DNA from: a virus
Lineage: Duplodnaviria > Caudoviricetes
Strand: one strand, 5' to 3'
Length of the DNA stretch: 54,374 bases
Virus record (IMG/VR): IMGVR_UViG_3300008963_000004
Span: 1-54,374 of that record
Position numbers and translations under genes: made by a program. Shown piece by piece: positions 43,824-54,374 of the stretch (positions are counted from its first letter, which is position 1; every line of letters starts with the position of its first letter). The notes beneath the pieces are model-generated. The model ran no database searches. It was not told the DNA's origin and was given only the letters and a program-made list of their open reading frames with translations.

Positions 43824-43911
43824 CCGAGAGAAATTTTTTACACTTTTCAGTTGTTACACTCGCAGGTTGTGCGCATAAAAAAGCACACTCCGACTCAGAG
43901 TATGTTCTTGT

Positions 43912-43940
43912 GTTATAGCTTAAACTGCTGTGCTGCGCAA
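43912..43940 (-). promoter_or_regulatory. Sigma70-like promoter followed immediately by a terminator
   Basis: TTGCGC-17-TATAAC; hairpin 43884-43904 then T6. Confidence 0.55.
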
Positions 43941-43968
43941 GCACTGAATGCGCTTGCGCTGCTGTTTT

Positions 43969-44091
43969 TTAAGTATTTTGTTCCCATGTTCCCATGTGTG
44001 TTTGCAGTTTAAGTGCTGCGAGCTGTATGCGCGGGCACAGGCGCGGGTTAACAGTTGCTTTTGCGAGAGTGATGTAAAGCAGTTTACGCAT
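43969..44091 (-). CDS. 40-aa protein (not in ORF track)
   Basis: TTGCAA-17-TAAAAC promoter, GAGGAG SD; MRKLLYITLAKATVNPRLCPRIQLAALKLQTHMGTWEQNT*. Confidence 0.6.
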   Translation of the reverse strand: MRKLLYITLAKATVNPRLCPRIQLAALKLQTHMGTWEQNT

Positions 44092-44182
44092 AGTGTGCTC
44101 CTCTGTTGCTACACTGTTGTTTTAACAAAAACTGTGGTGCATTGCAAGCACTTTTTGCACTTGCAATGCAGTTGTGTTTGTG

Positions 44183-44323
44183 TTAAAGTATGCGCACGCT
44201 TTCCCACACGCGATGTCCCCCCATGCGCTTAACAAAGTAGTTAATTGCAGTGCGCTTGCTCTTAAACTTGCGCGCTACAGTTTCCCACTCGTTTGCGCTG
44301 TTAAGCACTTGCATAGTATACAT
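44183..44323 (-). CDS. 46-aa protein (not in ORF track)
   Basis: TTGCAC-17-TATAAC promoter, AGGAG SD; MYTMQVLNSANEWETVARKFKSKRTAINYFVKRMGGHRVWESVRIL*. Confidence 0.65.
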   Translation of the reverse strand: MYTMQVLNSANEWETVARKFKSKRTAINYFVKRMGGHRVWESVRIL

Positions 44324-44547
44324 ATTGCTGCTCCTGCTGCTGTTGCTATACATGTGTTATAGCTTAAACTGCTGTAGTGTGCAAGTGTTTTTTTAGAAAA
44401 AAGCAAAAAAATCTGTGCAAGCTGTGCGTGTATATACAGCCGAGCCAATGCACTTTTAGCGTGTAACACTCGCAGGTTGTATTAAAACACACGCTGCAAT
44501 TGCAGCGTGTGCTTTGTTTTATTGCAGCACTGCCTGGATCAGTTTGG

Positions 44548-44856: not shown

Positions 44857-44863
44857 GTTGTTT

Positions 44864-44920
44864 TCCTCTCTTGTGTTGCCCTATGTGTGTGTTATAGCAA
44901 ACGCACAGAGCTGTGTCAAC
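44864..44920 (-). promoter_or_regulatory. Hairpin promoter/leader cassette
   Basis: TTGACA-17-TATAAC, then ATAGGGCAACACAAGAGAGG; spacer pairs with the +1 region. Confidence 0.85.
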
Positions 44921-44928
44921 TGTTGTTT

Positions 44929-45144
44929 TTAGATTTTTGCAGGATCGCCGTATGCACCTGCATCACACTTGCTGCGATAATACTGTGCAGTGCGGCGTGT
45001 AAGCCCGCACACAATAGGCTGTGCCTCGCCCCAGAAGATGATTGAGCCTTTGCCTTTGACGTCTGCTTTGCGGAATACTGCATAGCTTTCCGCCGAGTCA
45101 CCGTCATACTTCTTAACAGTAAACTTGCTTTTGTTCGTCGCCAT
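44929..45144 (-). CDS. Hypothetical early protein
   Basis: Own promoter and GAGGG leader. Confidence 0.7.
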   Translation of the reverse strand: MATNKSKFTVKKYDGDSAESYAVFRKADVKGKGSIIFWGEAQPIVCGLTRRTAQYYRSKCDAGAYGDPAKI

Positions 45145-45151
45145 CGTGTTG

Positions 45152-45209
45152 CCCTCTTGTGTGTGTTGCCCTACGCCGTTTTATAGCATAGGGCAACATC
45201 ACGGTCAAC
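45152..45209 (-). promoter_or_regulatory. Hairpin promoter/leader cassette
   Basis: TTGACC-17-TATAAA; 13-bp stem TGTTGCCCTATGC/GCGTAGGGCAACA. Confidence 0.85.
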
Positions 45210-45414
45210 CGTAATCTTTAAAATGTCCCAGCTGTTCGTTCTCTTCGTAGCCTGCCCAGTAAGCAGCAATCTCGTCTGCTGTCATGTCCTCCTGCTCGAC
45301 ACGCTCGCTCCGGCCAGTGCCGCCTTTGTAGTAGTGCGGACGAGGAAGACGCCCGTAGTAGCTGTCTGCTGAGCCGCGATCAAATGCTCCGCCGTGTCGT
45401 TGATCGTATGCCAT
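45205..45414 (-). CDS. Hypothetical early protein
   Basis: HGGAFDRGSADSYYGR..RPHYY, EIAAY.AGY; own promoter. Confidence 0.75.
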   Translation of the reverse strand: MAYDQRHGGAFDRGSADSYYGRLPRPHYYKGGTGRSERVEQEDMTADEIAAYWAGYEENEQLGHFKDYG

Positions 45415-45423
45415 AGCGTGTAT

Positions 45424-45484
45424 CTCCTCTGCTGTGTTGTTGCCCTATATGTGTGTTATAGCATCTCACAAAACAGTGTGCAAC
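45424..45484 (-). promoter_or_regulatory. Promoter/leader cassette (weak hairpin)
   Basis: TTGCAC-17-TATAAC, ATAGGGCAAC, GAGGAG. Confidence 0.75.
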
Positions 45485-45554
45485 CGAAAAATTAAACTGT
45501 TTTCGTTTGTGAGCACACAACCCACAGTTGTAACAACCCACAGTTGCAAGCCAC

Positions 45555-45584
45555 AAAAAAACGCAACCTGAAGTTGCGTTTTTT
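45555..45584. terminator. Bidirectional intrinsic terminator
   Basis: A7-CGCAAC-ctgaa-GTTGCG-T6. Confidence 0.75.
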
Positions 45585-45595
45585 CGTTGTGGTGT

Positions 45596-46102
45596 TTAGG
45601 TCCACTTCAGGCCATATGCTCTCAGCGCCGTCACGTTCTCCAGTTTGAAAGTGCGGATCACAACCTTGCGTTCAAGCCCGCCCTGTCCTGTGCTCTCACG
45701 TGCCTCCGGAAGCCCTTCAATCTCGCTTGCTTGCACGGGCTGCCCGTCCAGCATATACTGCACCTCGCCTGCCTTCAGGAAGATCACTTCCAGGTAGTGT
45801 TCGCCTTTGTGAGTAACGAACGGAGTGCCCTCAATGCGCTCGCCCCATGCGCGAGGGCTGAGTTGAAAGCTGTCTGCGTCCTTGCCTTCTGCCTCCAAGC
45901 GGCGCCGCACCATTTTGTCGTATGCGCTGCCGTTGGTGTTTGAAAAGCTCATTACCTGTGCGCCTGTCATCACCTTTGTGACGCGACCTTGCTGCGGATT
46001 CTTCTTGCCGCCTTTGAGCTTGACCGGTGTCGCCGTGTCCAAACCTACGAATGTGCCGCCTTCCAGTGCTGCGAACGCTCTCTGTGCAGTTTCCAGTTTC
46101 AT
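45596..46102 (-). CDS. Hypothetical early protein
   Basis: Own promoter; KLKGGKKNP.QGRVTK, PRAWGER; start at MKLET. Confidence 0.75.
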   Translation of the reverse strand: MKLETAQRAFAALEGGTFVGLDTATPVKLKGGKKNPQQGRVTKVMTGAQVMSFSNTNGSAYDKMVRRRLEAEGKDADSFQLSPRAWGERIEGTPFVTHKGEHYLEVIFLKAGEVQYMLDGQPVQASEIEGLPEARESTGQGGLERKVVIRTFKLENVTALRAYGLKWT

Positions 46103-46111
46103 TGCAATCAT

Positions 46112-46165
46112 CCTTTTTGTGTTGCCTTATGCGTTGTTTATAGCAAACGCACAGGGCAGTGTCAA
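46112..46165 (-). promoter_or_regulatory. Hairpin promoter/leader cassette
   Basis: TTGACA-17-TATAAA; TGCCCTGTGCGTT/AACGCATAAGGCA. Confidence 0.85.
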
Positions 46166-46167
46166 TC

Positions 46168-46299
46168 CTATTTTTTGACTTTTTCGATGATCAGTTTGGG
46201 ATCTCCGGGCAACTGTTGACGAATCATTGCCAATGCGTCCTCATGCCGGCTCACCACAGCCACAGTCTCGTCAGTCATATAGTCTTTGATTGCATACAT
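46168..46299 (-). CDS. 43-aa protein (not in ORF track)
   Basis: GGAG SD; MYAIKDYMTDETVAVVSRHEDALAMIRQQLPGDPKLIIEKVKK*. Confidence 0.6.
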   Translation of the reverse strand: MYAIKDYMTDETVAVVSRHEDALAMIRQQLPGDPKLIIEKVKK

Positions 46300-46302
46300 G
46301 AT

Positions 46303-46557
46303 TTACACTCCCCACAACACTCGCAGACTCTCAGCAGCAGCAAAACCATCGCCCAGTTCGTTCCAGGCATGCTCTGCATCTTCCAATGCCCGAGCACGAG
46401 CATCTACGATACGCTGATCCAGCAGCTCGTTGTGAGCGTCTTCGGCAACGCAGTCTGCGCTATACGTCAGTGCCTGGCAGATGTCGTCTTCGTCGCCGTT
46501 CCAACCAAACTCCAGCAGGTCCCGAAGCTGACGGTTTTCGACATGAGCAAAACGCAT
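46303..46557 (-). CDS. Hypothetical acidic early protein
   Basis: Start MRFAHVEN after AAGGAG; promoter TTGACA-17-TACAGT at ~46583-46611. Confidence 0.7.
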   Translation of the reverse strand: MRFAHVENRQLRDLLEFGWNGDEDDICQALTYSADCVAEDAHNELLDQRIVDARARALEDAEHAWNELGDGFAAAESLRVLWGV

Positions 46558-46642
46558 TTGTATCTCCTTTTTTGTTGTGTTCACTGTAGCGCATGCACGA
46601 AACAGTGTCAACCTGCTTGTGCATGCGCGTCAGTGGATTTTG

Positions 46643-47101
46643 TTACCAACTGGCTCGGTAGTAGAAGTCCCAGCCTTTGAGAGCATCCAGTGCTTCCTTT
46701 GTGAGGAATCCGTTCAGCCAACGCAGTGTGCGTTCCACATCGTCAAAGTAGTATTCGTCGTATGCCGTGCTGCCAAAGAAGAATCCGCTTTGCACAGGCA
46801 GCAGCTTTTCAGCTAGGGAGTGATCCTCTGATACCTGTTTGCAGATATCTCTGAGATCGTGCAGATCTTCTATGGACACAGATGACTCCTGGCATTCGTC
46901 GACGCCCTCTTGCACTGTATCCACAAACCAACGATGGATTGCGTTGGCCTTGCGCCAATACATGAACTCTGCGCTGACTTCGTTGATCCGTGCGCCAGCA
47001 GCTTCCGGAAACAGTCGTGCCACACCTGCGATTCGGTCCTGGTCTGCATCACCAAAGTCCCAAAGGTAACGCTTACCAGTGAAAAACATATCCAGTCCCA
47101 T
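46643..47101 (-). CDS. Conserved phage protein (MGLDM...YWRKANAIH.WF...YYRASW type)
   Basis: Motifs MGLDM, YWRKAN.IH.WF, GFFFGS..YDEYY; SD GAGGAG. Confidence 0.8.
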   Translation of the reverse strand: MGLDMFFTGKRYLWDFGDADQDRIAGVARLFPEAAGARINEVSAEFMYWRKANAIHRWFVDTVQEGVDECQESSVSIEDLHDLRDICKQVSEDHSLAEKLLPVQSGFFFGSTAYDEYYFDDVERTLRWLNGFLTKEALDALKGWDFYYRASW

Positions 47102-47112
47102 GTTGTGCTCCT

Positions 47113-47167
47113 CTCTTGTGTGTTGCCCTATGCGTTGTTTATAGCAAACGCACAGGGCTGAGTCAAC
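47113..47167 (-). repeat. Hairpin promoter cassette, identical 55-bp copy 1
   Basis: TTGACT-17-TATAAA; identical to 47607-47661. Confidence 0.95.
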
Positions 47168-47172
47168 CGTTT

Positions 47173-47595
47173 TTATGCGATTAAACGCTGTTCCCACTGT
47201 GCCCAATGATCAATGCGACCTGCGTTCAGCAGCTGATCAAGGTCGAAGTAGTAGTCAGGTTCGTCGTCGGGTGTGTCCAACACTCGTTTCCTTACGCCCC
47301 ACGGAGCAGGCTCAATGATCTCTTCTCTCTCTGACAATGTCTCAAGTTGAGCATCAGTGAATATATCTTCCTTTGTCATCTGATCACAAACTGGCAGATA
47401 TTGGCCATATGCGACAGTGATTAGAATACAACCCGTATCAGAACCGTCGTTGAACCAGTAAAGGTCCCAACCAGCATAGTCGCCCCAGGGTTCGTCGGTG
47501 TTGGCGTGACATTCTTCGATGAGGAACAGAATAACAGTGCCATCGTCAGGCTGTTCGTCTAGGTACTCTCGGGGTGAACCAGTGACTGCATACAT
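47173..47595 (-). CDS. Hypothetical acidic protein
   Basis: Flanked by identical 55-bp repeats. Confidence 0.7.
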   Translation of the reverse strand: MYAVTGSPREYLDEQPDDGTVILFLIEECHANTDEPWGDYAGWDLYWFNDGSDTGCILITVAYGQYLPVCDQMTKEDIFTDAQLETLSEREEIIEPAPWGVRKRVLDTPDDEPDYYFDLDQLLNAGRIDHWAQWEQRLIA

Positions 47596-47606
47596 CCGAA
47601 GTTTCC

Positions 47607-47661
47607 CTCTTGTGTGTTGCCCTATGCGTTGTTTATAGCAAACGCACAGGGCTGAGTCAAC
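47607..47661 (-). repeat. Hairpin promoter cassette, identical 55-bp copy 2
   Basis: Identical to 47113-47167. Confidence 0.95.
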
Positions 47662-48117
47662 TCAAAAGTTGGGTTCGAGATCGCCAAAATGTTTCTGATT
47701 GCAGCTTGCTTGGAACCGTGTAATCTCAAGTATCTGCTCATCACTGTTCGATGGAAACAGTTGACGCTTCTCTGCAAGGATCTTCTGGAAGCTGTCTGAC
47801 TCTTCGTCGTATGCAACCTCGCCCTGTGCCAATTTTGCAAGCATCGCTTCATCACGCTTGCGCGCCGCTGTATCAGGTTTCTGCTTTGCTGGTGCTGCTC
47901 GCCTGCCTGCAGGACGGTCTTCTGTAAGCCTTTTTGCCACGAGGAATTCAGTTGCCTGTTCCTTGGTCATTGCCGAGCCCAGTTCCCAGAACTCTATGTC
48001 AGTGTGTCCAGCTTTGACCAGCACAGTCTCACGATTGAGATCGTTGGTGAAGCGGAAACGAGTGCGACCTTTTTCGCAAGTGCTGCGGCCTGCGCGAGTG
48101 AAAGTCTTGTTGCTCAT
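47662..48117 (-). CDS. Hypothetical early protein
   Basis: FRFTND..R..VL.KAGHTDI..EL..AMTKE.A; own promoter. Confidence 0.75.
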   Translation of the reverse strand: MSNKTFTRAGRSTCEKGRTRFRFTNDLNRETVLVKAGHTDIEFWELGSAMTKEQATEFLVAKRLTEDRPAGRRAAPAKQKPDTAARKRDEAMLAKLAQGEVAYDEESDSFQKILAEKRQLFPSNSDEQILEITRFQASCNQKHFGDLEPNF

Positions 48118-48131
48118 TGTGTTTCCCTCTG

Positions 48132-48182
48132 TTGTGTGTTGCCCTGTGCAGACAACTTAGCATCTGCACAGAGCAGTGTCAA
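48132..48182 (-). repeat. Hairpin promoter cassette, identical 51-bp copy 1
   Basis: TTGACA-17-TAAGTT; stem TGCTCTGTGCAGA/TCTGCACAGGGCA; identical to 48378-48428. Confidence 0.95.
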
Positions 48183-48189
48183 CTGATTT

Positions 48190-48363
48190 CTACGTTTTCA
48201 GTCCCAGACGCTGATTGAAAATTGAGTTGATTTTGCGAGCAACAAGATCTTTCACCCACTCCGGAGCAGGATCAGACTCCATAGCATCAAGCGCCTCGTA
48301 GAGTTGCATATCAGTGAGATTTTCGAGCCGCTTCAGCTCAGCGTCAAGAGCGGTCTGTGCCAT
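48190..48363 (-). CDS. 57-aa protein (not in ORF track)
   Basis: MAQTALDAELKRLENLTDMQLYEALDAMESDPAPEWVKDLVARKINSIFNQRLGLKT*; GAGGG SD. Confidence 0.75.
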   Translation of the reverse strand: MAQTALDAELKRLENLTDMQLYEALDAMESDPAPEWVKDLVARKINSIFNQRLGLKT

Positions 48364-48377
48364 TCTCTGTTTCCCTC

Positions 48378-48428
48378 TTGTGTGTTGCCCTGTGCAGACA
48401 ACTTAGCATCTGCACAGAGCAGTGTCAA
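48378..48428 (-). repeat. Hairpin promoter cassette, identical 51-bp copy 2
   Basis: Identical to 48132-48182. Confidence 0.95.
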
Positions 48429-48758
48429 TATGGAAAATATTCAATCTCAGCTTTGGTTTCAGGATCTCTCCATTCACTGAGAATACTATCTCGGTTCACT
48501 CCTATCTTGCGAAGTGTGAATTCATTCATATGAGCAATCACTTCAGTTGGGCACAGTTCTCCTTGTTCCGCCAACTCCGTGGGATTTTGCAAAGTGTAAA
48601 AACCCAAACGATAGGGTTTTCCATCCAACCATTTGCAAGTCGTTGATGCCGTCGAGCCGAGCTTGCTGCAAAAATTCAAAGCGATCCTGCTCAACCCACA
48701 GTTCAACTCCTTGGAATTTGACCATAACATATTCAGGTTTTTGAAGGAAAAAATTCAT
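48425..48758 (-). pseudogene. Probably frameshifted hypothetical gene
   Basis: Promoter TTGAAC-17-TAATGT and GAGGG lead to MNFFLQ (stop 48543); an overlapping frame runs on to 48425. Confidence 0.45.
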
Positions 48759-48790
48759 CCTGTTGCCCTCTGTGTTGCTGTGTGTTTACA

Positions 48791-49048
48791 TTAGCACTGA
48801 CGCGGACGAAGTTCAACCTCTAAATTCACTGCGTGTCGTGCTTCAGGCTTCAGCACATACTGGTCTCGTTTGCTGTATGCATACCGTATCAGTGACCGCT
48901 CGTCGTCGTTTAGATTATCTATCTTATCCAACATCTCCAGATCCACTGAGAGTTGACTTGCACGGTTTGCTACAATATCATCAGGGTCAACTTCTGCGAC
49001 GTTGCGTAGAAGCTGTTTGATTTTTTGGATTTCAGATACTGTGAACAT
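48791..49048 (-). CDS. Hypothetical protein
   Basis: ORF on the array strand. Confidence 0.55.
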   Translation of the reverse strand: MFTVSEIQKIKQLLRNVAEVDPDDIVANRASQLSVDLEMLDKIDNLNDDERSLIRYAYSKRDQYVLKPEARHAVNLEVELRPRQC

Positions 49049-49102
49049 TCTGCTTCTTTTTTTTGTGCTGCGTATGCGTTTAACAGCGGGGCCTCATAGT
49101 GT

Positions 49103-49128
49103 GTGCAGCGCAGTTGCCTGCGCTGCAC
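49103..49128 (-). terminator. Stable hairpin with GCAA tetraloop
   Basis: GTGCAGCGCAG-GCAA-CTGCGCTGCAC on the minus strand; no U-tract. Confidence 0.55.
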
Positions 49129-49136
49129 CTTGCTGC

Positions 49137-49388
49137 TTACCGAGCAAAGTTGATCACTGCCTGGCCTTTGGGAGTCAGCTTGGTGTTGTGCCGCGGGCGC
49201 CCACGCCCTTCCTGCTTCACAGCCACAAAGCCCACGTAACCAGCTTCAGCCAGCTGACGCTTGTGGTAGTAGCTGGGCTCAGCATAGCCTTCCATGCCTT
49301 TGATGCCTTTCAGTGCAGCCAGCAGCTTGTCCTTGCGATCGAAAATGCTGGGGGCGCCGCGCTTGGAGTTGGAGTTGGAGTTGGTCAT
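49137..49388 (-). CDS. Small basic possible DNA-binding protein
   Basis: L.EAGYV, GRGRP, KLTPKG (winged-helix-like tail); promoter TTGACA-17-TAAGTT at ~49440-49468. Confidence 0.6.
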   Translation of the reverse strand: MTNSNSNSKRGAPSIFDRKDKLLAALKGIKGMEGYAEPSYYHKRQLAEAGYVGFVAVKQEGRGRPRHNTKLTPKGQAVINFAR

Positions 49389-49580
49389 TTTGTATTTTCC
49401 CTCTTGTGTGTGTTGCACTAGCTCTTTGCTAGCATGTTTAACTTAAACTGTTGTGCCTTCAGTGTCAACAGTTTTTTTCGACGTTCGATGATTTTTTTGT
49501 ATCTCCTTTGTGTGTTTCTGTTTGTTCAAACTTTATAGCACAGCACTGAGCCGTGATCAACAAAAAAATTACCAAATGTC

Positions 49581-49780
49581 AAAAAAAGCCCTTGCTGCGA
49601 GGGAACACAGCAAGGGCCTAGTGTAGGAGCAGAGCGTGAGGGCAACGTTTGCTCCTAGTGCACAGTTGGTCGAGGGCGGACCAACCATGTGTTACAGCAG
49701 CACCTGAGGGCACAAGGGCTACTGTTGTGCAGCACAGGAGCAGTGCTCAACTGTGCTGATTCGCCGTGCTGTCCACGGTC
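49581..49780 (-). ncRNA. Candidate multi-hairpin RNA with anti-SD-like (CCCUC) loops
   Basis: Hairpins 49588-617, 49624-657, 49665-685, 49694-725 and 49730-758; ends in hairpin+U7 on the minus strand. Confidence 0.65.
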
Positions 49781-49786
49781 TTTTTG

Positions 49787-50797
49787 TTATCTGCTCATCA
49801 CAGTGTTTTCTGCAAACGCTTTCCAGTTCTGCGGGAACGCTTTTGCCAAGTCAGCAACTTTGAGAACAGTTCGAAGACTGAGTTCTCGCAGTCTGTGTTT
49901 GTGTTCGTCTACGAAATCAATGATTTCCATCTTGACATCCTGTGCTAAATCGTAATTATCCAGCATGCCGTCCTGAACAACTTGACGAATACGCAGCATC
50001 TTTTCTCGCTCTGTGTCAATGGTCAAGTCAATGTAGTGACAGCGCGATTCCAGTGCTTCCAGATGATCCTTCAACTTTTTGCTCTTGACACGATCAAACT
50101 TCAAGTTTGTGATAAAGATAGCCGAACCTTCAAAACGAAAGCTGTCAGGTACACCTTCATTGCGCAACTTGAAACTGTCTGTGTTCCAATGAATAGTGCG
50201 ATGCTTTTTTGAGTCCAGTGCTGCTTTCATGATGTTGAGACTGAGTTCATCTGAAAACACAGAATCACAGTCGTCGAACACAATCACATTGTCTCGGTCT
50301 GCATACTTGTAGAGTTTGACATACAAGCCGATTGCGCTCATTGCACCTTTCACGACTTCGTATTTCTTGGCGCCGCCCAGCGTCTCAACCATCTGATAAC
50401 GATCCAGCACTTCCTCTACACCGTGGCTCTTGCCAACACCTGGAGGACCTGATACGATCATTGCTCGAACATCGCCCTTCTTCACAGCTTTGGTCATTTC
50501 GTTGAGCATGCCAAAGCGAGTTCTCAGTCGTTCTACAATCTCGTCATCAGTCTCTTCGATCACTGGTTCCTTAACAGCAACAGCGGGGCCTTCAGTGACT
50601 TCGTAATCATCCTCACTGTCACAGAGGATCTTGATGTTGTGATCAGGAAAGCCAGGATGTGAACTGCCGTTTACAGTAACATAGCCACCGCGCTTGCCTG
50701 TTTTGAACCCTTCGACCAGCTCAAAGCTCATGCCGTTTACGTCGGTAGGAACTCCGCGCAGTTTGTAGCGTCCGTTGATGATAGTGATTGTGCTCAT
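49787..50797 (-). CDS. AAA+/P-loop ATPase
   Basis: GPPGVGKS, IVFDDCD, IFITN, ALESR, RELSLR; promoter TTGACA-17-TATACT. Confidence 0.85.
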   Translation of the reverse strand: MSTITIINGRYKLRGVPTDVNGMSFELVEGFKTGKRGGYVTVNGSSHPGFPDHNIKILCDSEDDYEVTEGPAVAVKEPVIEETDDEIVERLRTRFGMLNEMTKAVKKGDVRAMIVSGPPGVGKSHGVEEVLDRYQMVETLGGAKKYEVVKGAMSAIGLYVKLYKYADRDNVIVFDDCDSVFSDELSLNIMKAALDSKKHRTIHWNTDSFKLRNEGVPDSFRFEGSAIFITNLKFDRVKSKKLKDHLEALESRCHYIDLTIDTEREKMLRIRQVVQDGMLDNYDLAQDVKMEIIDFVDEHKHRLRELSLRTVLKVADLAKAFPQNWKAFAENTVMSR

Positions 50798-50846
50798 GCA
50801 TTTCCCTCTTTGTGTTCAATCAGTATACTGTGATTGTTCTCTGTTG

Positions 50847-51011
50847 TCAACCAAACAACAGTGCCAAAATAACGCCAAAGCCAATGATATACCCAACGAA
50901 CCCGATCACTTCGAACATGATGTGATCGCCCACTGAGGAACTGTGTGTGCAATGCGAGCAGTGCGATGCAAACATTGGCTTTTCCTTGTGACACTTTGGA
51001 CAGTATGCCAT
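50847..51011 (-). CDS. Zn-ribbon membrane microprotein
   Basis: CPKC..CSHC plus hydrophobic tail; promoter TTGACA-17-TATACT, AAGGAG. Confidence 0.7.
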   Translation of the reverse strand: MAYCPKCHKEKPMFASHCSHCTHSSSVGDHIMFEVIGFVGYIIGFGVILALLFG

Positions 51012-51137
51012 GATGTTCTCCTTGTGTTGTCCATTGCAGTATAGCAGCAATTCTTGTGTATGTCAACTCGCATAGCAGGAGGATCGTCAGCAAAGCGCGA
51101 GACCAACACTCTCAATGCGAGATCAACTCCTGCTAAC

Positions 51138-51214
51138 TGGCGCTCCCGGAAGGACTCGAACCCTCAACCTAGGCATTAGAAGTGCCTTGCTCTTTCCAGT
51201 TGAGCTACAGAAGC
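51138..51214 (-). tRNA. tRNA-Arg(TCT)
   Basis: Cloverleaf: TAGCTCAACTGGAAAGAGC D-arm, AGGCA-CTTCTAA-TGCCT, GGTTCGAGTCC, CCA end. Confidence 0.95.
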
Positions 51215-51219
51215 GTATA

Positions 51220-51305
51220 TGGTGCGGGCGGTGGGACTCGAACCCACAATCCATTAAGGCGACAGATTTTAAGTCTGTTGAGTATACCAATTCCTCCACG
51301 CCCGC
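51220..51305 (-). tRNA. tRNA-Leu(TAA)
   Basis: GCGGGCG acceptor, ACAGA-CTTAAAA-TCTGT, long variable arm, GGTTCGAGTCC, ACCA end. Confidence 0.95.
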
Positions 51306-51327
51306 GTCTTTCTCTGTCTACTTGTTT

Positions 51328-51356
51328 AATTTAGCGTCGTTCTGTTTCTTTGTCAA
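51328..51356 (-). promoter_or_regulatory. Sigma70 promoter for the tRNAs
   Basis: TTGACA-17-TAAATT. Confidence 0.7.
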
Positions 51357-51392
51357 GTTCTTTTGACGGATTGCTTCTGCTATCTTACGCTT

Positions 51393-51420
51393 GTGCTCTA
51401 ACCAATTGAGCTAATCCCCC
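51393..51420 (-). pseudogene. 5' fragment of a tRNA
   Basis: GGGGGATTAGCTCAATTGGTTAGAGCAC; no anticodon arm or T-arm. Confidence 0.8.
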
Positions 51421-51436
51421 GTTTGTCCTTTTCTGA

Positions 51437-51463
51437 TGTGTCTACCAATTCCACCACGCAGGC
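51437..51463 (-). pseudogene. 5' fragment of a tRNA-Leu-type gene
   Basis: GCCTGCGTGGTGGAATTGGTAGACACA; remainder missing. Confidence 0.8.
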
Positions 51464-51474
51464 TCTGTGCCTAT

Positions 51475-51693
51475 TTACTTGTTCTCCTTGTAAACAGGCT
51501 TTGGTTTCGGTTTGATGTTTGCCTGTGCTTGATCAATCATGTCGTTGAGCATAGATACTTGTTCTTTGACAATCATAAGCTCGCACTGTTGAACAGTGAT
51601 CATTTTGGTTGGCTTTACTGGAGTCTTGTCAGCAAAAGCTGGAAAAGCCAACATTGCCATAACACCAGCAGTGAGAATGATTTGATTTTGCAT
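51475..51693 (-). CDS. Small secreted protein
   Basis: Signal peptide ending PAFA-D; promoter TTGACA-17-TACACT. Confidence 0.7.
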   Translation of the reverse strand: MQNQIILTAGVMAMLAFPAFADKTPVKPTKMITVQQCELMIVKEQVSMLNDMIDQAQANIKPKPKPVYKENK

Positions 51694-51755
51694 TGTATAT
51701 CCTCTTCTACTCGCACAGTGTATGACAGGGCCGAAGCCCTGTCAACTGTTTTGTT

Positions 51756-52028
51756 TTATGCTGCGTCGACCACAGCAAGCATTGCAGCCGGCACGTTCCA
51801 AGTGGTGAAGCCTTCACGCACCTTCACGTTCTTGCGATTCACTTTGACAACTTCACCGGTGATCACACGCCCGCGAGCAGTGAATTCAACAGTGTCGCCA
51901 ACGTTAACCGAACGGATGTTCTGCATGGAGATGAACTGTCGCTGAAGCTTCACAGCGTCAATGATCTGCGCCAGTTCGTCGTTGTTGTTGCAGTTGCGAA
52001 TTGCAGTGATTGCAGTTTGAACACTCAT
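51756..52028 (-). CDS. Small SH3/KOW-like protein
   Basis: VGDTVEF...GEVVKVNRKNVKV....WNVPA.ML; promoter TTGACG-17-TATAAC. Confidence 0.75.
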   Translation of the reverse strand: MSVQTAITAIRNCNNNDELAQIIDAVKLQRQFISMQNIRSVNVGDTVEFTARGRVITGEVVKVNRKNVKVREGFTTWNVPAAMLAVVDAA

Positions 52029-52079
52029 TGTGTATTCCCTCTTTGTGTGTTGCTCTATGTGTTAGTTATAGCACCGGAT

Positions 52080-52271
52080 TTAGAACTCGTCAATGAGATA
52101 TTCTTCCTCAGGCTCATAAACCACACAGCCGTCAGCGTCATAGACTTCTACATCTCGTGAGCCTGAGTCAAACTCTTCGTCTGCTCGAGCACAGGCCGCT
52201 TCCAGTGTGCGGCACTCAGCGATCAGTGCTTCGTTGGCATAGCCTCGTGCGAAATAGACGTAATACATCAT
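52080..52271 (-). CDS. Hypothetical acidic protein
   Basis: Coupled ORF with SD. Confidence 0.7.
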   Translation of the reverse strand: MMYYVYFARGYANEALIAECRTLEAACARADEEFDSGSRDVEVYDADGCVVYEPEEEYLIDEF

Positions 52272-52534
52272 TCCATCTCCTCTAGTTGCTCGTAATGGGC
52301 TTCAAGCTCGCGCACCATTTGGTTGTGGGTTGGCGTGTTAAGGTGCACCAACCCCACATACATCGAATCGTTGAATCCAACTTCAGTGATATACACGTCT
52401 TTGAGGCCAAGGTCTATGTCCAGGAAGTTCTGTAGATAACGGAACTCGTGATAGTCATCCGCAGTGATCACACGCGGCAGATCCAGCGTGACCTGTGCAT
52501 CAGTCTTGATGTTGTCAGGATCGATCATCGTCAT
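52268..52534 (-). CDS. Hypothetical protein
   Basis: AAGGAG SD. Confidence 0.7.
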   Translation of the reverse strand: MTMIDPDNIKTDAQVTLDLPRVITADDYHEFRYLQNFLDIDLGLKDVYITEVGFNDSMYVGLVHLNTPTHNQMVRELEAHYEQLEEME

Positions 52535-52540
52535 TCTCCT

Positions 52541-52690
52541 TTAGTCGCACATTCCCATGAAAGCAGCAGCACCAGCGCCGTTGCCCAACAGCAGAGCCCG
52601 CGCCCCACATTCTTTGAAAGTAAATACAGCCATGCTCACAGCAAGCACAAACCATACAGCTATTACAAAGTATACCCAGCGTGGAAACAT
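52541..52690 (-). CDS. 49-aa membrane protein (not in ORF track)
   Basis: GGAGG SD; MFPRWVYFVIAVWFVLAVSMAVFTFKECGARALLLGNGAGAAAFMGMCD*. Confidence 0.65.
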   Translation of the reverse strand: MFPRWVYFVIAVWFVLAVSMAVFTFKECGARALLLGNGAGAAAFMGMCD

Positions 52691-52691
52691 G

Positions 52692-52844
52692 TCAATCCTC
52701 CAGTTTGCGAGTAGTGCCATAAGCCACAGTCAAAACAGCATTGGCTAGACAGATAGCCCAAAACTCCCAACCACCGCCTGGGAACGCTTGTCCTGCTGTG
52801 TAGCCAACAAGTCCGCCTTGGACGATTATAATAATGTTATTCAT
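52692..52844 (-). CDS. 50-aa membrane protein
   Basis: Start MNNIIII; two hydrophobic segments. Confidence 0.6.
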   Translation of the reverse strand: MNNIIIIVQGGLVGYTAGQAFPGGGWEFWAICLANAVLTVAYGTTRKLED

Positions 52845-52845
52845 A

Positions 52846-53166
52846 TCACACCCCCCGTCCGTAGTAATGTTTCTCAATCAGTGACCGTGCAGCATCGTAG
52901 TCGTCTTGGATCTTTGAGCTAACAAAGTAAAAGCGACGCGAGCCGTTGCCTCCAGGACCAACTCCAGCGTTCTCTCCGTCGCCGAATACTGCGGCGTTGT
53001 CGAGATAACGGAAGCCGCGATAGTTGCCAGTGTCAAACAGCACGCCTTCGACGAAGGTGCACATCACCTCCCGCTCCTCTGCGGTTGAGTTCTCCGAAGC
53101 GAGGAAATAGTTTACGCGGTGCAGCAGTGTGCCAACTTCTACAGTCTTGCGCTTAGTCTTAGCCAT
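52846..53166 (-). CDS. Hypothetical early protein
   Basis: RKTVEV, E.VL..TGNYRGFRYL; own hairpin promoter. Confidence 0.75.
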   Translation of the reverse strand: MAKTKRKTVEVGTLLHRVNYFLASENSTAEEREVMCTFVEGVLFDTGNYRGFRYLDNAAVFGDGENAGVGPGGNGSRRFYFVSSKIQDDYDAARSLIEKHYYGRGV

Positions 53167-53173
53167 TTGCAAA

Positions 53174-53231
53174 CCCTCTTGCTGTGTTGCCCTACCCTTA
53201 TACTATAGCACAAGGGTAGAGCAGTGTCAAC
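53174..53231 (-). promoter_or_regulatory. Hairpin promoter/leader cassette
   Basis: TTGACA-17-TATAGT; stem TGCTCTACCCTTGT/ATAAGGGTAGGGCA. Confidence 0.85.
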
Positions 53232-53237
53232 CAGTTT

Positions 53238-53480
53238 TTACCAGTGATGACTGCTGCCTAGATCACAGTAGTCCGCAGTGTAGGGGCTCCACTCCTCGTC
53301 CTCGTCCTCGTCCTCTTCATCCTCTTCTTCCCACATAAAGAACTCTTCGTTGTGTGCCATGTCAGCAACTTCGTCTTCGCTCATGTAGCCCAGCGCAGCT
53401 TGTGCAACCTGCTCCCAAGTCAGCAAGCCTTCATCAACAGCGTCGTAAATCCGGATTGTCATTTGACGTGCATTAGCCAT
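53238..53480 (-). CDS. Hypothetical protein with acidic tract
   Basis: Start MANARQ; L.YMSEDEV.DM...EE. Confidence 0.75.
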   Translation of the reverse strand: MANARQMTIRIYDAVDEGLLTWEQVAQAALGYMSEDEVADMAHNEEFFMWEEEDEEDEDEDEEWSPYTADYCDLGSSHHW

Positions 53481-53487
53481 TGTGTAG

Positions 53488-53546
53488 TTCCTTTGTATGT
53501 GTTGCCCTATACGCTTACAATAGCAAACGCATAGGACAGTGTCAAC
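53488..53546 (-). promoter_or_regulatory. Hairpin promoter/leader cassette
   Basis: TTGACA-17-TATTGT; stem TGTCCTATGCGTTT/AAGCGTATAGGGCA. Confidence 0.85.
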
Positions 53547-53547
53547 A

Positions 53548-53694
53548 TCAAACTTCAGTGTTGACGTCAATCAGTTCCATGTTCTTGATTTGATCCTCAT
53601 ATGTGAAGTCATAGTCCATCTCGGCAATTACTTCGCTGACGTCTGCGTCTTCCTCCAAATACAGTGCAACAGTAACGTGAATCATCCGGGCCAT
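53548..53694 (-). CDS. 48-aa acidic protein (not in ORF track)
   Basis: AGGAG SD; MARMIHVTVALYLEEDADVSEVIAEMDYDFTYEDQIKNMELIDVNTEV*. Confidence 0.7.
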   Translation of the reverse strand: MARMIHVTVALYLEEDADVSEVIAEMDYDFTYEDQIKNMELIDVNTEV

Positions 53695-53739
53695 ATCAGT
53701 CTCCTATGTCGTTGTGTGTGTCTGTGTTGTAGCATATGA

Positions 53740-53777
53740 CGGGCAGCGTGTCGACTCCATTGTCGACACGCTGCCCG
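53740..53777. other. Perfect 16-bp inverted repeat overlapping a TCGACA-17-TACAAC promoter
   Basis: CGGGCAGCGTGTCGAC-6-GTCGACACGCTGCCCG. Confidence 0.8.
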
Positions 53778-53783
53778 GAAGGA

Positions 53784-54311
53784 TCAGTAATAGTATTCGT
53801 CCTCTTCTTCCTCTTGGTCCTCTGCCAGCTGCTCGTCCTCACAGTAGTGGCACAGGCTGCTATACAGCCCGCCTCCGTCTACTTCGTCGCCGCACTCTTC
53901 GCAGAAGTTCTGCTCCGGCTCTTCGTATTCGAACATGTCTTCCGTGTTCTCAGCATTGACGAGCTCCGGCCGCTCCAGGATGTGCTCCACAGTGCTGTCA
54001 ATCATGCGCTCTACAGCAACCTGCAAGCTGTCGCCTTCGTAGCGCCCGTCATACAGCAAGCCTCGTGTGTATTCGTAGATGGTGCCGTGTGTCTCAGCGT
54101 CAATGACACCTTTATGGAGCAGGAAGTTCACAGCGCCACTGGTGTTGTTGCCCATGCCGTTGTTATACAGGTCGTGAGCAAGGCGTGTTGCTGAGCGCAG
54201 CATCTCGCCAGCTACAGTGTCGCAGTTGCCCATCAGCGGAATGAGCTCATCGCACATCCGATCAAAGTCTGCTTGGTAAGCGCCCTGCTTGTTCCAGTAA
54301 GTGTTCTGCAT
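53784..54311 (-). CDS. Hypothetical protein with C-terminal Zn ribbon and acidic tail
   Basis: YWN..G.YQ, GE.LR...RL.HD.YNNG.GN, CEECG..LCHYC. Confidence 0.75.
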   Translation of the reverse strand: MQNTYWNKQGAYQADFDRMCDELIPLMGNCDTVAGEMLRSATRLAHDLYNNGMGNNTSGAVNFLLHKGVIDAETHGTIYEYTRGLLYDGRYEGDSLQVAVERMIDSTVEHILERPELVNAENTEDMFEYEEPEQNFCEECGDEVDGGGLYSSLCHYCEDEQLAEDQEEEEDEYYY

Positions 54312-54320
54312 AGCGTGTAT

Positions 54321-54374
54321 CCCTCTCTGCTATGTGTTGCCCTATGTGTAAGTTATAGCAAACACATAGGGCAG
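54321..54374 (-). promoter_or_regulatory. Hairpin promoter/leader cassette (cut by window end)
   Basis: Perfect 12-bp stem TGCCCTATGTGT/ACACATAGGGCA around TGCTATAAC. Confidence 0.8.

Follow-up and report, generated by a model that had tools for sequence, protein, structure and literature searches.

The window analysed here is the whole of the linear virus record IMGVR_UViG_3300008963_000004 (54,374 bases; estimated completeness 15%), a 54-kb piece of an uncultured jumbo myophage whose early region carries repeated sigma70-type promoter cassettes with embedded hairpins. The plus-strand block (1-42,284) encodes a tail sheath protein, the large terminase (TerL), SSB, helicases and members of DnaB-like helicase families. 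The SSB, with matches in 96 phage records, is 56.6% identical to that of PA5oct-type Pseudomonas jumbo phages and, judged by this protein, the nearest isolates are PA5oct-type jumbo phages, not T4-type phages. Relatives that carry the cassettes include contigs of 330 kb and 382 kb.

The early block of about 12 kb (42.3-54.4 kb) lies on the minus strand and contains about 26 small open reading frames (ORFs) of 41-336 amino acids (aa), in an order partly shuffled compared with the relatives. None of the ten early proteins scanned reached a Pfam curated cutoff and no DNA-binding family was found among them; one gave a sub-threshold AAA match and two more gave other weak matches. A megablast search with 8.4 kb of the early region returned no match in phage records. 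G+C content is about 50% in the early cassette region versus 30-40% in the structural and replication part (1-41000). Since the cassette-rich stretches of five relatives (L002, L004, L011, L012 and L014) show the same rise, with G+C of about 0.50 versus 0.34-0.42 in their flanks, this sharp split looks like a lineage trait rather than a chimeric assembly. In PA5oct, the annotation table and GC profile of the region around the AAA-gene homologue indicate tightly packed genes.

Promoter cassettes and their hairpins

About 22 intergenic sigma70-type cassettes were counted on the minus strand between 42.3 and 54.4 kb, and a strict promoter scan placed nine of the window promoters at 10/12 matches or better. 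The unit runs over about 65 nucleotides (nt) from the upstream stop codon through promoter, leader and ribosome-binding site (RBS) to the ATG, with the layout GGTTGACA, a 17-nt spacer ending in TGC, a -10 box of the TATAAA/TAAGTT type, about 13 nt, GGGCAACAC, RBS and ATG. The promoter is near-consensus (GGTTGACA-N17-TGCTATAA) and is followed by a conserved start region and leader, (A)TAGGGCAACAC..., the RBS and ATG lying 23-36 nt after the -10. In 11 window cassettes the upstream stop codon falls between 4 nt inside the -35 and 10 nt before it, and A+T content is 60% in the upstream 22 nt versus 41% in the spacer. A set of 116 related cassettes has the consensus gGTTGACA-N15-gTGCTATa, and the start-region motif (a)TAGggcAAca is kept across all of them, in phages whose early proteins are only 30-73% identical.

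The original prediction named ten cassettes in which the -10 box would sit in the loop of a hairpin. All ten were found on the minus strand, each with TTGAC(A)-N17-TAnnnn, and all fold with the -10 in or at the loop. Their stems pair 12-16 spacer bases with bases 3' of the -10, and the RNA minimum free energy (MFE) ranges from -13.6 to -26.1 kcal/mol, with z-scores against dinucleotide shuffles of -3.6 to -6.0 in 8/10. The MFE loops contain all or part of TGCTATAA/TGCTAAGT (extended -10), as had been proposed, but they measure 4-10 nt, so that the predicted width of 8-12 nt was slightly too large. The stem sequences had been quoted correctly: eight distinct stems occur in the ten cassettes, with 15 G-U pairs in the MFE stems, and pairing is retained although the stems differ between copies and among 11 related viral contigs. 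The Shine-Dalgarno sequence is never within a stem. Over the whole window the position of the hairpin varies, around the -10, inside the spacer, or over or around the -35. Among the 116 cassettes, 51 have z < -2 and fall into several position classes, relatives also pairing the -35 with the -10 region. At E values up to 1, only two tRNAs passed in Rfam; two further matches, far below gathering scores, lie off the cassettes.

Gene ends, covariation and strand

The presence of the hairpin follows the distance to the preceding stop codon. A strong promoter-overlapping hairpin was found in all 13 window cassettes lying 31 nt or less from that codon, and in none of the other nine, which either are embedded in a coding sequence or follow at least 112 nt of intergenic DNA. 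Twelve of the 13 abutting promoters have a folding free energy (dG) of -13.6 or lower in the interval -14..+50; the thirteenth is the 53754 hairpin (-35.4 kcal/mol), which starts further upstream. The best dG among the nine non-abutting promoters is -11.2. Two of these (52093 and 48816) sit within the preceding ORF, and two others (45483 and 44384), both behind long intergenic stretches, are each preceded by a separate canonical terminator. In the relatives, a core dG of -13 kcal/mol or lower was reached by 35/63 abutting versus 5/28 other cassettes (Mann-Whitney, 6e-5). Because its presence tracks the preceding stop codon, the hairpin belongs to the end of the upstream gene.

Relatives were collected by an exact-pattern cassette scan of IMG/VR, which gave 17 loci in 11 viral contigs, and whole-record scans of five of these added more. 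Covariation was assessed on a fixed-register set of 49 distinct 47-mers from the window and relatives, with 12 pair positions counted. The number of standard pairs per cassette is bimodal, 17/49 having 10-12 and the remainder 1-8, while in slid registers 0-4 of the 49 cassettes reach at least 10 pairs. Each inner pair of the 17 paired cassettes occurs as 3-5 standard pair types (in column 18-33, CG 7, GC 6, AU 3, UA 1), and the covariation score of this set, which was picked for pairing, is 0.549 versus 0.234 in shuffles (0/500 reach it). On the unselected 49, 55.4% of cells are paired versus 50.3 +/- 1.0 in shuffles (0/500) and 35-41% in slid registers, and the covariation score is 0.196 versus 0.144 (0/500). 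The observation behind the original prediction is confirmed.

The cleanest covariation evidence comes from orthologous junctions. At that of gene D, the window, L005, L011 and L012 each have a stem of their own; that of gene X carries a GTTGCCCTATGC... stem in the window versus an unrelated TGCCGGCGGC... stem in L009; and that of gene C has a -10-enclosing stem in the window versus a spacer-type stem in L005. Orthologous junctions therefore keep a hairpin despite changed sequence or position.

To determine which strand carries the structure, each strand of 116 distinct cassettes was compared with its own dinucleotide shuffles, whose means were -10.2 and -10.1. The sense strand had a mean z of -2.00 and the antisense strand one of -1.05, with 38 sense versus 9 antisense cassettes at z < -3, and the sense strand folded better in 48 of the 53 cassettes structured on either strand, in agreement with the sense-strand selection suggested earlier. 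Folded as DNA, the sense strands gave -7.8 to -12.9 kcal/mol, with z of -2.6 to -6.1 in 7/8; for cassette 53545 the DNA MFE was -7.9 on the sense strand versus -2.3 on the antisense strand, where z was +0.13, that is, at chance. As the sense z-scores are better, the DNA stems modest and one antisense arm at chance level, sense RNA is the most plausible level of selection for the structure, with sense single-stranded DNA as a less plausible candidate.

Relation to PeSLs, proposed role and alternatives

The original prediction had treated this design as new. It corresponds to the PeSLs (promoter-early stem-loops) published for the T4-type phages RB49 and phi1 (Arbiol et al. 2010, PMC2839356). 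These are repeated intergenic motifs in which a stem-loop is combined with a consensus sigma70 promoter, an AT-rich upstream stretch with a stop codon, a Shine-Dalgarno sequence and a start codon. The same text includes stem-loops "overlapping the -10 box", in which G-T pairs are marked, reports that indels and mini-circles form between PeSLs, and proposes a terminator or attenuator role toward upstream transcription (PMC2839356). A later paper extended PeSLs to PST/T4 and nt-1/KVP40 (Comeau et al. 2014, PMC4122927). In phi1 itself, junctions such as TTGACA-TAACAGAGGGTGTATAT-CATAAT-ACACCC have the -10 in the loop of GGGTGTAT/ATACACCC (e.g. GGGTGTAT-ATCATA-ATACACCC), so that the -10-in-loop form exists in phi1 as well.

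The window cassettes share with PeSLs a repeated intergenic unit of about 65-100 nt, a stop codon in an A/T-rich stretch, a near-consensus sigma70 promoter, a stem-loop between or over the -35/-10 with G-T pairs, a conserved leader, a Shine-Dalgarno sequence and ATG, clustering among small orphan genes, and unit-flanked gene indels. They differ in lineage, the window phage being a PA5oct-type-related jumbo phage, and in their stems, which are of mixed sequence with many G-U pairs and a sense bias, whereas phi1 stems are made of G-runs and C-runs and, unlike the window cassettes, had the more stable fold on the antisense strand in 12/17 junctions folded. A blastn search with a 78-nt cassette against 50,697 phage records gave no match, and no likeness to PeSLs beyond the sigma70 boxes was found. 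This absence of sequence relation weakens any case for homology while leaving the similarity of design intact, PeSL being an operational class. The cassettes are a clear new example of the known PeSL design outside T4-type phages, not a new principle.

The PeSL design is hence not peculiar to T4-type phages, and its recurrence, without sequence kinship, in a lineage of uncultured jumbo phages from soil and lake argues for a convergent pressure exerted by dense tandem early transcription and by modular gene exchange. Title and abstract searches found no PeSL paper describing such cassettes in PA5oct-like phages, and abstract searches found no jumbo-phage paper on early-promoter stem-loops of this design. 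For phiKZ, the accessible part of the source reports terminators, not promoter-embedded stems (PMC10914365). Relative to the PeSL descriptions as far as these are accessible, the window adds compensatory change at orthologous junctions, a sense-strand bias pointing to RNA, and a rule by which the hairpin is part of the promoter exactly where the latter adjoins the stop codon of the gene before. These three features make the function directly testable.

Other hairpin systems are more distant. The junctions of T7 early genes carry RNase III processing hairpins, with longer and irregular stems, outside the promoters. They are comparable as junction hairpins of an early region transcribed by the host RNA polymerase and acting on polycistronic RNA and, by analogy, the cassettes might likewise endow the upstream message with a stabilising 3' stem; the window stems are of 12-16 bp and overlap the promoter. 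The early promoters of the N4 virion RNA polymerase consist of a DNA hairpin with a 5-7 bp stem and a 3-nt loop, without -35 or -10. The likeness lies in promoter recognition involving a DNA hairpin, but the window boxes are consensus sigma70 and an extruded stem would break their spacing. Lambdoid morons are similar in being single genes with their own promoter and terminator, but no conserved repeated unit flanks them, and their flanks are not regarded as the driver of mobility (PMC2839356).

Cassettes also bound gene gain and loss. There is one clear cassette-flanked indel: whereas a single cassette (53230) separates genes C and D in the window, their L005 orthologues are separated by five genes with near-identical cassettes at either end (9225 and 7333). 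Neighbouring cassettes are often identical (48428 = 48182 and 47660 = 47166), and six near-identical ones occur in L004. In four soil DNA runs, many contig joints were at cassettes (e.g. 47171>53236, 46567>52043 and 44899>48791), some of them backwards; these joints were not counted as evidence of recombination or mini-circles, the sides being of 20-53 nt and the cassettes repetitive. Separately, contigs in two soil runs (X2 and X4) skip exactly the 88-aa ORF 52268-52531, with two other letters at the joint, apparently a strain variant in which one gene is missing from the cassette-free five-gene operon 53166-52080.

We consider it fairly probable that the early region is a hyperplastic array of small orphan genes joined by PeSL-type junctions, in which the hairpin exerts its effect on RNA read through from the preceding gene. 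Sigma70 promoter geometry predicts a start 6-9 nt after the -10, so that cassette transcription would begin inside the right arm. Because it lies in or after this arm, the cassette's own transcript would be unable to form the stem, and only RNA reading through from upstream would fold the hairpin. The cassette appears to fill the entire gap between genes; because it is the whole intergenic space, the 3'-end stem-loop of the upstream gene would be written into the promoter, with one arm supplied by the free spacer and its partner by the region after the -10 and around the start, the remaining spacer half, or the -35. Such a hairpin would most likely attenuate or pause read-through and/or create a nuclease-resistant 3' end that stabilises the upstream message; we infer both the read-through and these effects. 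The conserved cassettes could double as homology patches for gene gain and loss. The part of the original prediction that invoked read-through RNA is supported by the sense-strand fold and by the link to the preceding gene end.

Several points limit or weigh against this reading. No RNA run containing the early region was found among public runs. The -10-enclosing stems are followed by AACACACAAGAGGG / AACACACAAG (AACAC...) with no U-run, and canonical terminators lie apart from the promoter hairpins (49586-49619, ~45556-45585 and 44488-44511). Only 56% of the abutting cassettes of relatives meet the energy cut, and the entry of cassette 48428 in the window count assumes that the 101-aa ORF 48425-48730 is the upstream gene. 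The covariation set of 17 cassettes was picked for pairing. In that same set, 27 G-T/T-G versus 4 A-C/C-A pairs give p 3e-5 against 0.5, but when the null is set by composition, from cross-partner pairs (0.72), the excess becomes marginal (p 0.07), and the strand claim therefore rests on the per-strand z-scores and not on the raw 27:4. Finally, the only PeSL terminator assay in print, as far as the accessible text goes, concerns one stem-loop (PeSL211/210), which lowered lacZ expression (PMC2839356). A list of 19 terminator-like sites includes no -10-enclosing hairpin, and the 51745 palindrome appears in it on the opposite strand only. Judged by E. coli rules on their sequence, the -10-enclosing hairpins are not intrinsic terminators; given the missing U-run and the real terminators elsewhere in the region, the effect of the promoter hairpins is probably short of full termination.

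Among the alternatives, the hairpin could be a leader-sequestration switch, burying (U)AGGGC(AAC) in read-through RNA, while transcripts from the cassette's own promoter present it as a single-stranded 5' element that might serve a factor, 5'-end chemistry or efficient downstream translation. In the -10-enclosing class, TAGGGC invariably closes the right arm, which in the shifted register reaches into CAAC; the motif (a)TAGggcAAca is conserved across the 116 cassettes; and the left arm has evolved to match the leader in two registers. However, hairpins wholly in the spacer or -35 leave the leader free (e.g. 51745, 53754 and L005 9524), the Shine-Dalgarno sequence stays outside every stem, and the TAGGGC arm may just reflect a fixed sequence with the spacer as its sole free partner. 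Hiding of the AGGGC leader, as originally suggested, is thus possible for the -10-enclosing subclass but not general, and we regard the switch as unlikely. Somewhat less likely still, the hairpin would be an RNA "origin tag" whose pairing with the first message bases (UAGGGCAAC) sets read-through copies apart from own-promoter copies. If so, only the latter would expose a 5' end to a phage or host factor for translation, capping-like modification or decay, and each orphan gene would be metered by its own promoter despite dense tandem transcription. An equally doubtful proposal places the structure in DNA, as a cruciform or single-stranded hairpin that gates or pre-opens the -10 or marks a recombination hot spot. 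It can draw on the folding of the sense strands as DNA and on the cassette-flanked indel of L005. A cruciform nevertheless requires both strands, and the antisense folds are weaker, the sense G-T pairs becoming A-C mismatches; 8-10-nt loops and 12-bp stems extrude poorly; a stem taking 12 of the 17 spacer bases would ruin the -35/-10 spacing; non-abutting promoters have no hairpin, which is unexpected for promoter gating; and homology alone suffices for recombination. The cruciform half of the original prediction is accordingly disfavoured.

It is very unlikely that the palindromes have no function and are by-products of templated (quasi-palindrome) mutation and cassette copy-and-paste. Identity between neighbours does mean that part of the counts reflects copying, but hairpins persist at orthologous junctions with unrelated sequence or position, follow the distance to the upstream stop and favour one strand. 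These same junctions, with their unrelated stems, speak against a protein operator, in which GCCCT(A/G)...(T/C)AGGGC would be the site of a dimeric phage regulator switching early promoters off. The outer five pairs (columns 9-13 with 38-42) are indeed the most conserved, and, by overlapping the -10, the site is placed where repressors classically bind. Yet the inner seven pairs vary in sequence and stay paired, all 17 outer-repeat cassettes (at least 10/12 pairs) also pairing at 5/7 or more inner positions; two registers occur; the structure is biased to one strand; and the ten early proteins scanned include no DNA-binding family. We therefore find an operator extremely improbable. A dual promoter was also considered, in which the conserved ACATAGGGC around the start, which we take to resemble the start region of T7-type promoters, would be such a start region; this idea is unsupported. 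PF00940 (T7-like RNA polymerase) was not found in the window or in two relatives (93% and 100% complete), and the control genomes gave none either.

Further features of the early region

Table 1. Cassettes of the early region, with the position and stability of their hairpins (z, against dinucleotide shuffles)
Feature	Position	Strand	Hairpin and remarks
Cassette cut by contig end	54312..54374	-	-35 missing; hairpin 54338-54373 around -10 TATAAC; leader GGGCAACAC, RBS, ATG 54311; RNA -21.1; DNA z -5.9
-35-overlapping cassette (53754)	53695..53776	-	16-bp hairpin 53741-53776, right arm includes -35 TCGACA; ATG 53694; RNA -35.4 kcal/mol, z -7.0
Cassette 53545	53481..53545	-	hairpin 53503-53538, 16 bp, 4 G-U; -10 TATTGT at loop; z -4.9
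Cassette 53230	53167..53230	-	hairpin 53188-53223, 16 bp; -10 TATAGT at loop; z -5.9; between genes C and D
Cassette 52093	52029..52093	-	without left arm; upstream stop in spacer (gap -14); right side default TAACACATAGAGCAAC; z -1.0
Cassette 51745	51694..51745	-	hairpin in -35/spacer, 51723-51744, GACAGGGC-TTCG-GCCCTGTC; RNA -21.4 kcal/mol, z -6.5
AAA-ATPase gene cassette	50798..50850	-	weak 6-bp hairpin, -10 TATACT in loop; upstream stop overlaps -35; -13.6 for -14..+50
Cassette 48816	48759..48816	-	inside end of upstream ORF (gap -26); no hairpin; -7.8
Cassette 48428	48364..48428	-	hairpin 48386-48421, 14 bp; TGCTAAGT in loop; z -4.7; identical to 48182 copy
Cassette 48182	48118..48182	-	hairpin 48140-48175; stem same as 48428; z -4.2
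Cassette 47660	47596..47660	-	hairpin 47619-47652, 12 bp; 10-nt loop TGCTATAAAC; z -4.6
Cassette 47166	47102..47166	-	hairpin 47125-47158; stem same as 47660; z -3.9
Cassette 46611	46558..46628	-	hairpin 46589-46628, GCGCATGCAC/GTGCATGCGC, -35 in loop; RNA -33.8 kcal/mol, z -7.4
Cassette 46165	46112..46165	-	hairpin 46123-46158, one C-A mismatch; z -3.7
Cassette 45483	45415..45483	-	no strong hairpin; gap 112; separate canonical terminator ~45556-45585 before cassette
Shifted-register cassette 45208	45145..45208	-	hairpin 45164-45198, GTTGCCCTATGC/GCGTAGGGCAAC; upstream stop TGA inside -35; z -6.0
Degenerate cassette 44919	44857..44919	-	hairpin 44878-44911, 10/12 pairs, mismatches such as C-A; z -1.9; DNA z +0.4

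The record ends (54374) inside a cassette whose -35 is missing, which is consistent with an assembly break at a repeat. The minus strand at 49469-49560 carries TTGATC-N17-TATAAA, a promoter resembling those of the cassettes and equipped with leader and AAGGAG, and no start codon intervenes between it and the next cassette, at 49468; this may be an orphan cassette remaining from a deletion. A second promoter family, TTGCAC/TTGCGC ... AGCAGTTTAAGC TATAAC, occupies 43880-44390 on the minus strand, at the inner end of the early region, and has no embedded hairpin.

The minus-strand interval 48425-48758 contains two overlapping ORFs in different frames, one of 71 aa from a cassette ATG at 48758 and one of 101 aa ending at 48425. 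They look like a single gene split by a frameshift near GGAAAACCC, and no homologue was present in the loci examined. The 216 nt 3' of the AAA-ATPase gene (49575-49790, minus strand) form six hairpins ending in a canonical terminator, with an RNA MFE of -97.1 kcal/mol and z of -6.8; this stretch, which has no Rfam match, may be a structured non-coding RNA. Lastly, the minus-strand interval 51360-51470, which precedes tRNA-Leu and tRNA-Arg, resembles a tRNA (GGGGGATTAGCTCAATTGGTTAGAGC...); ARAGORN and Rfam make no call there, and it may be a decayed or interrupted tRNA gene.

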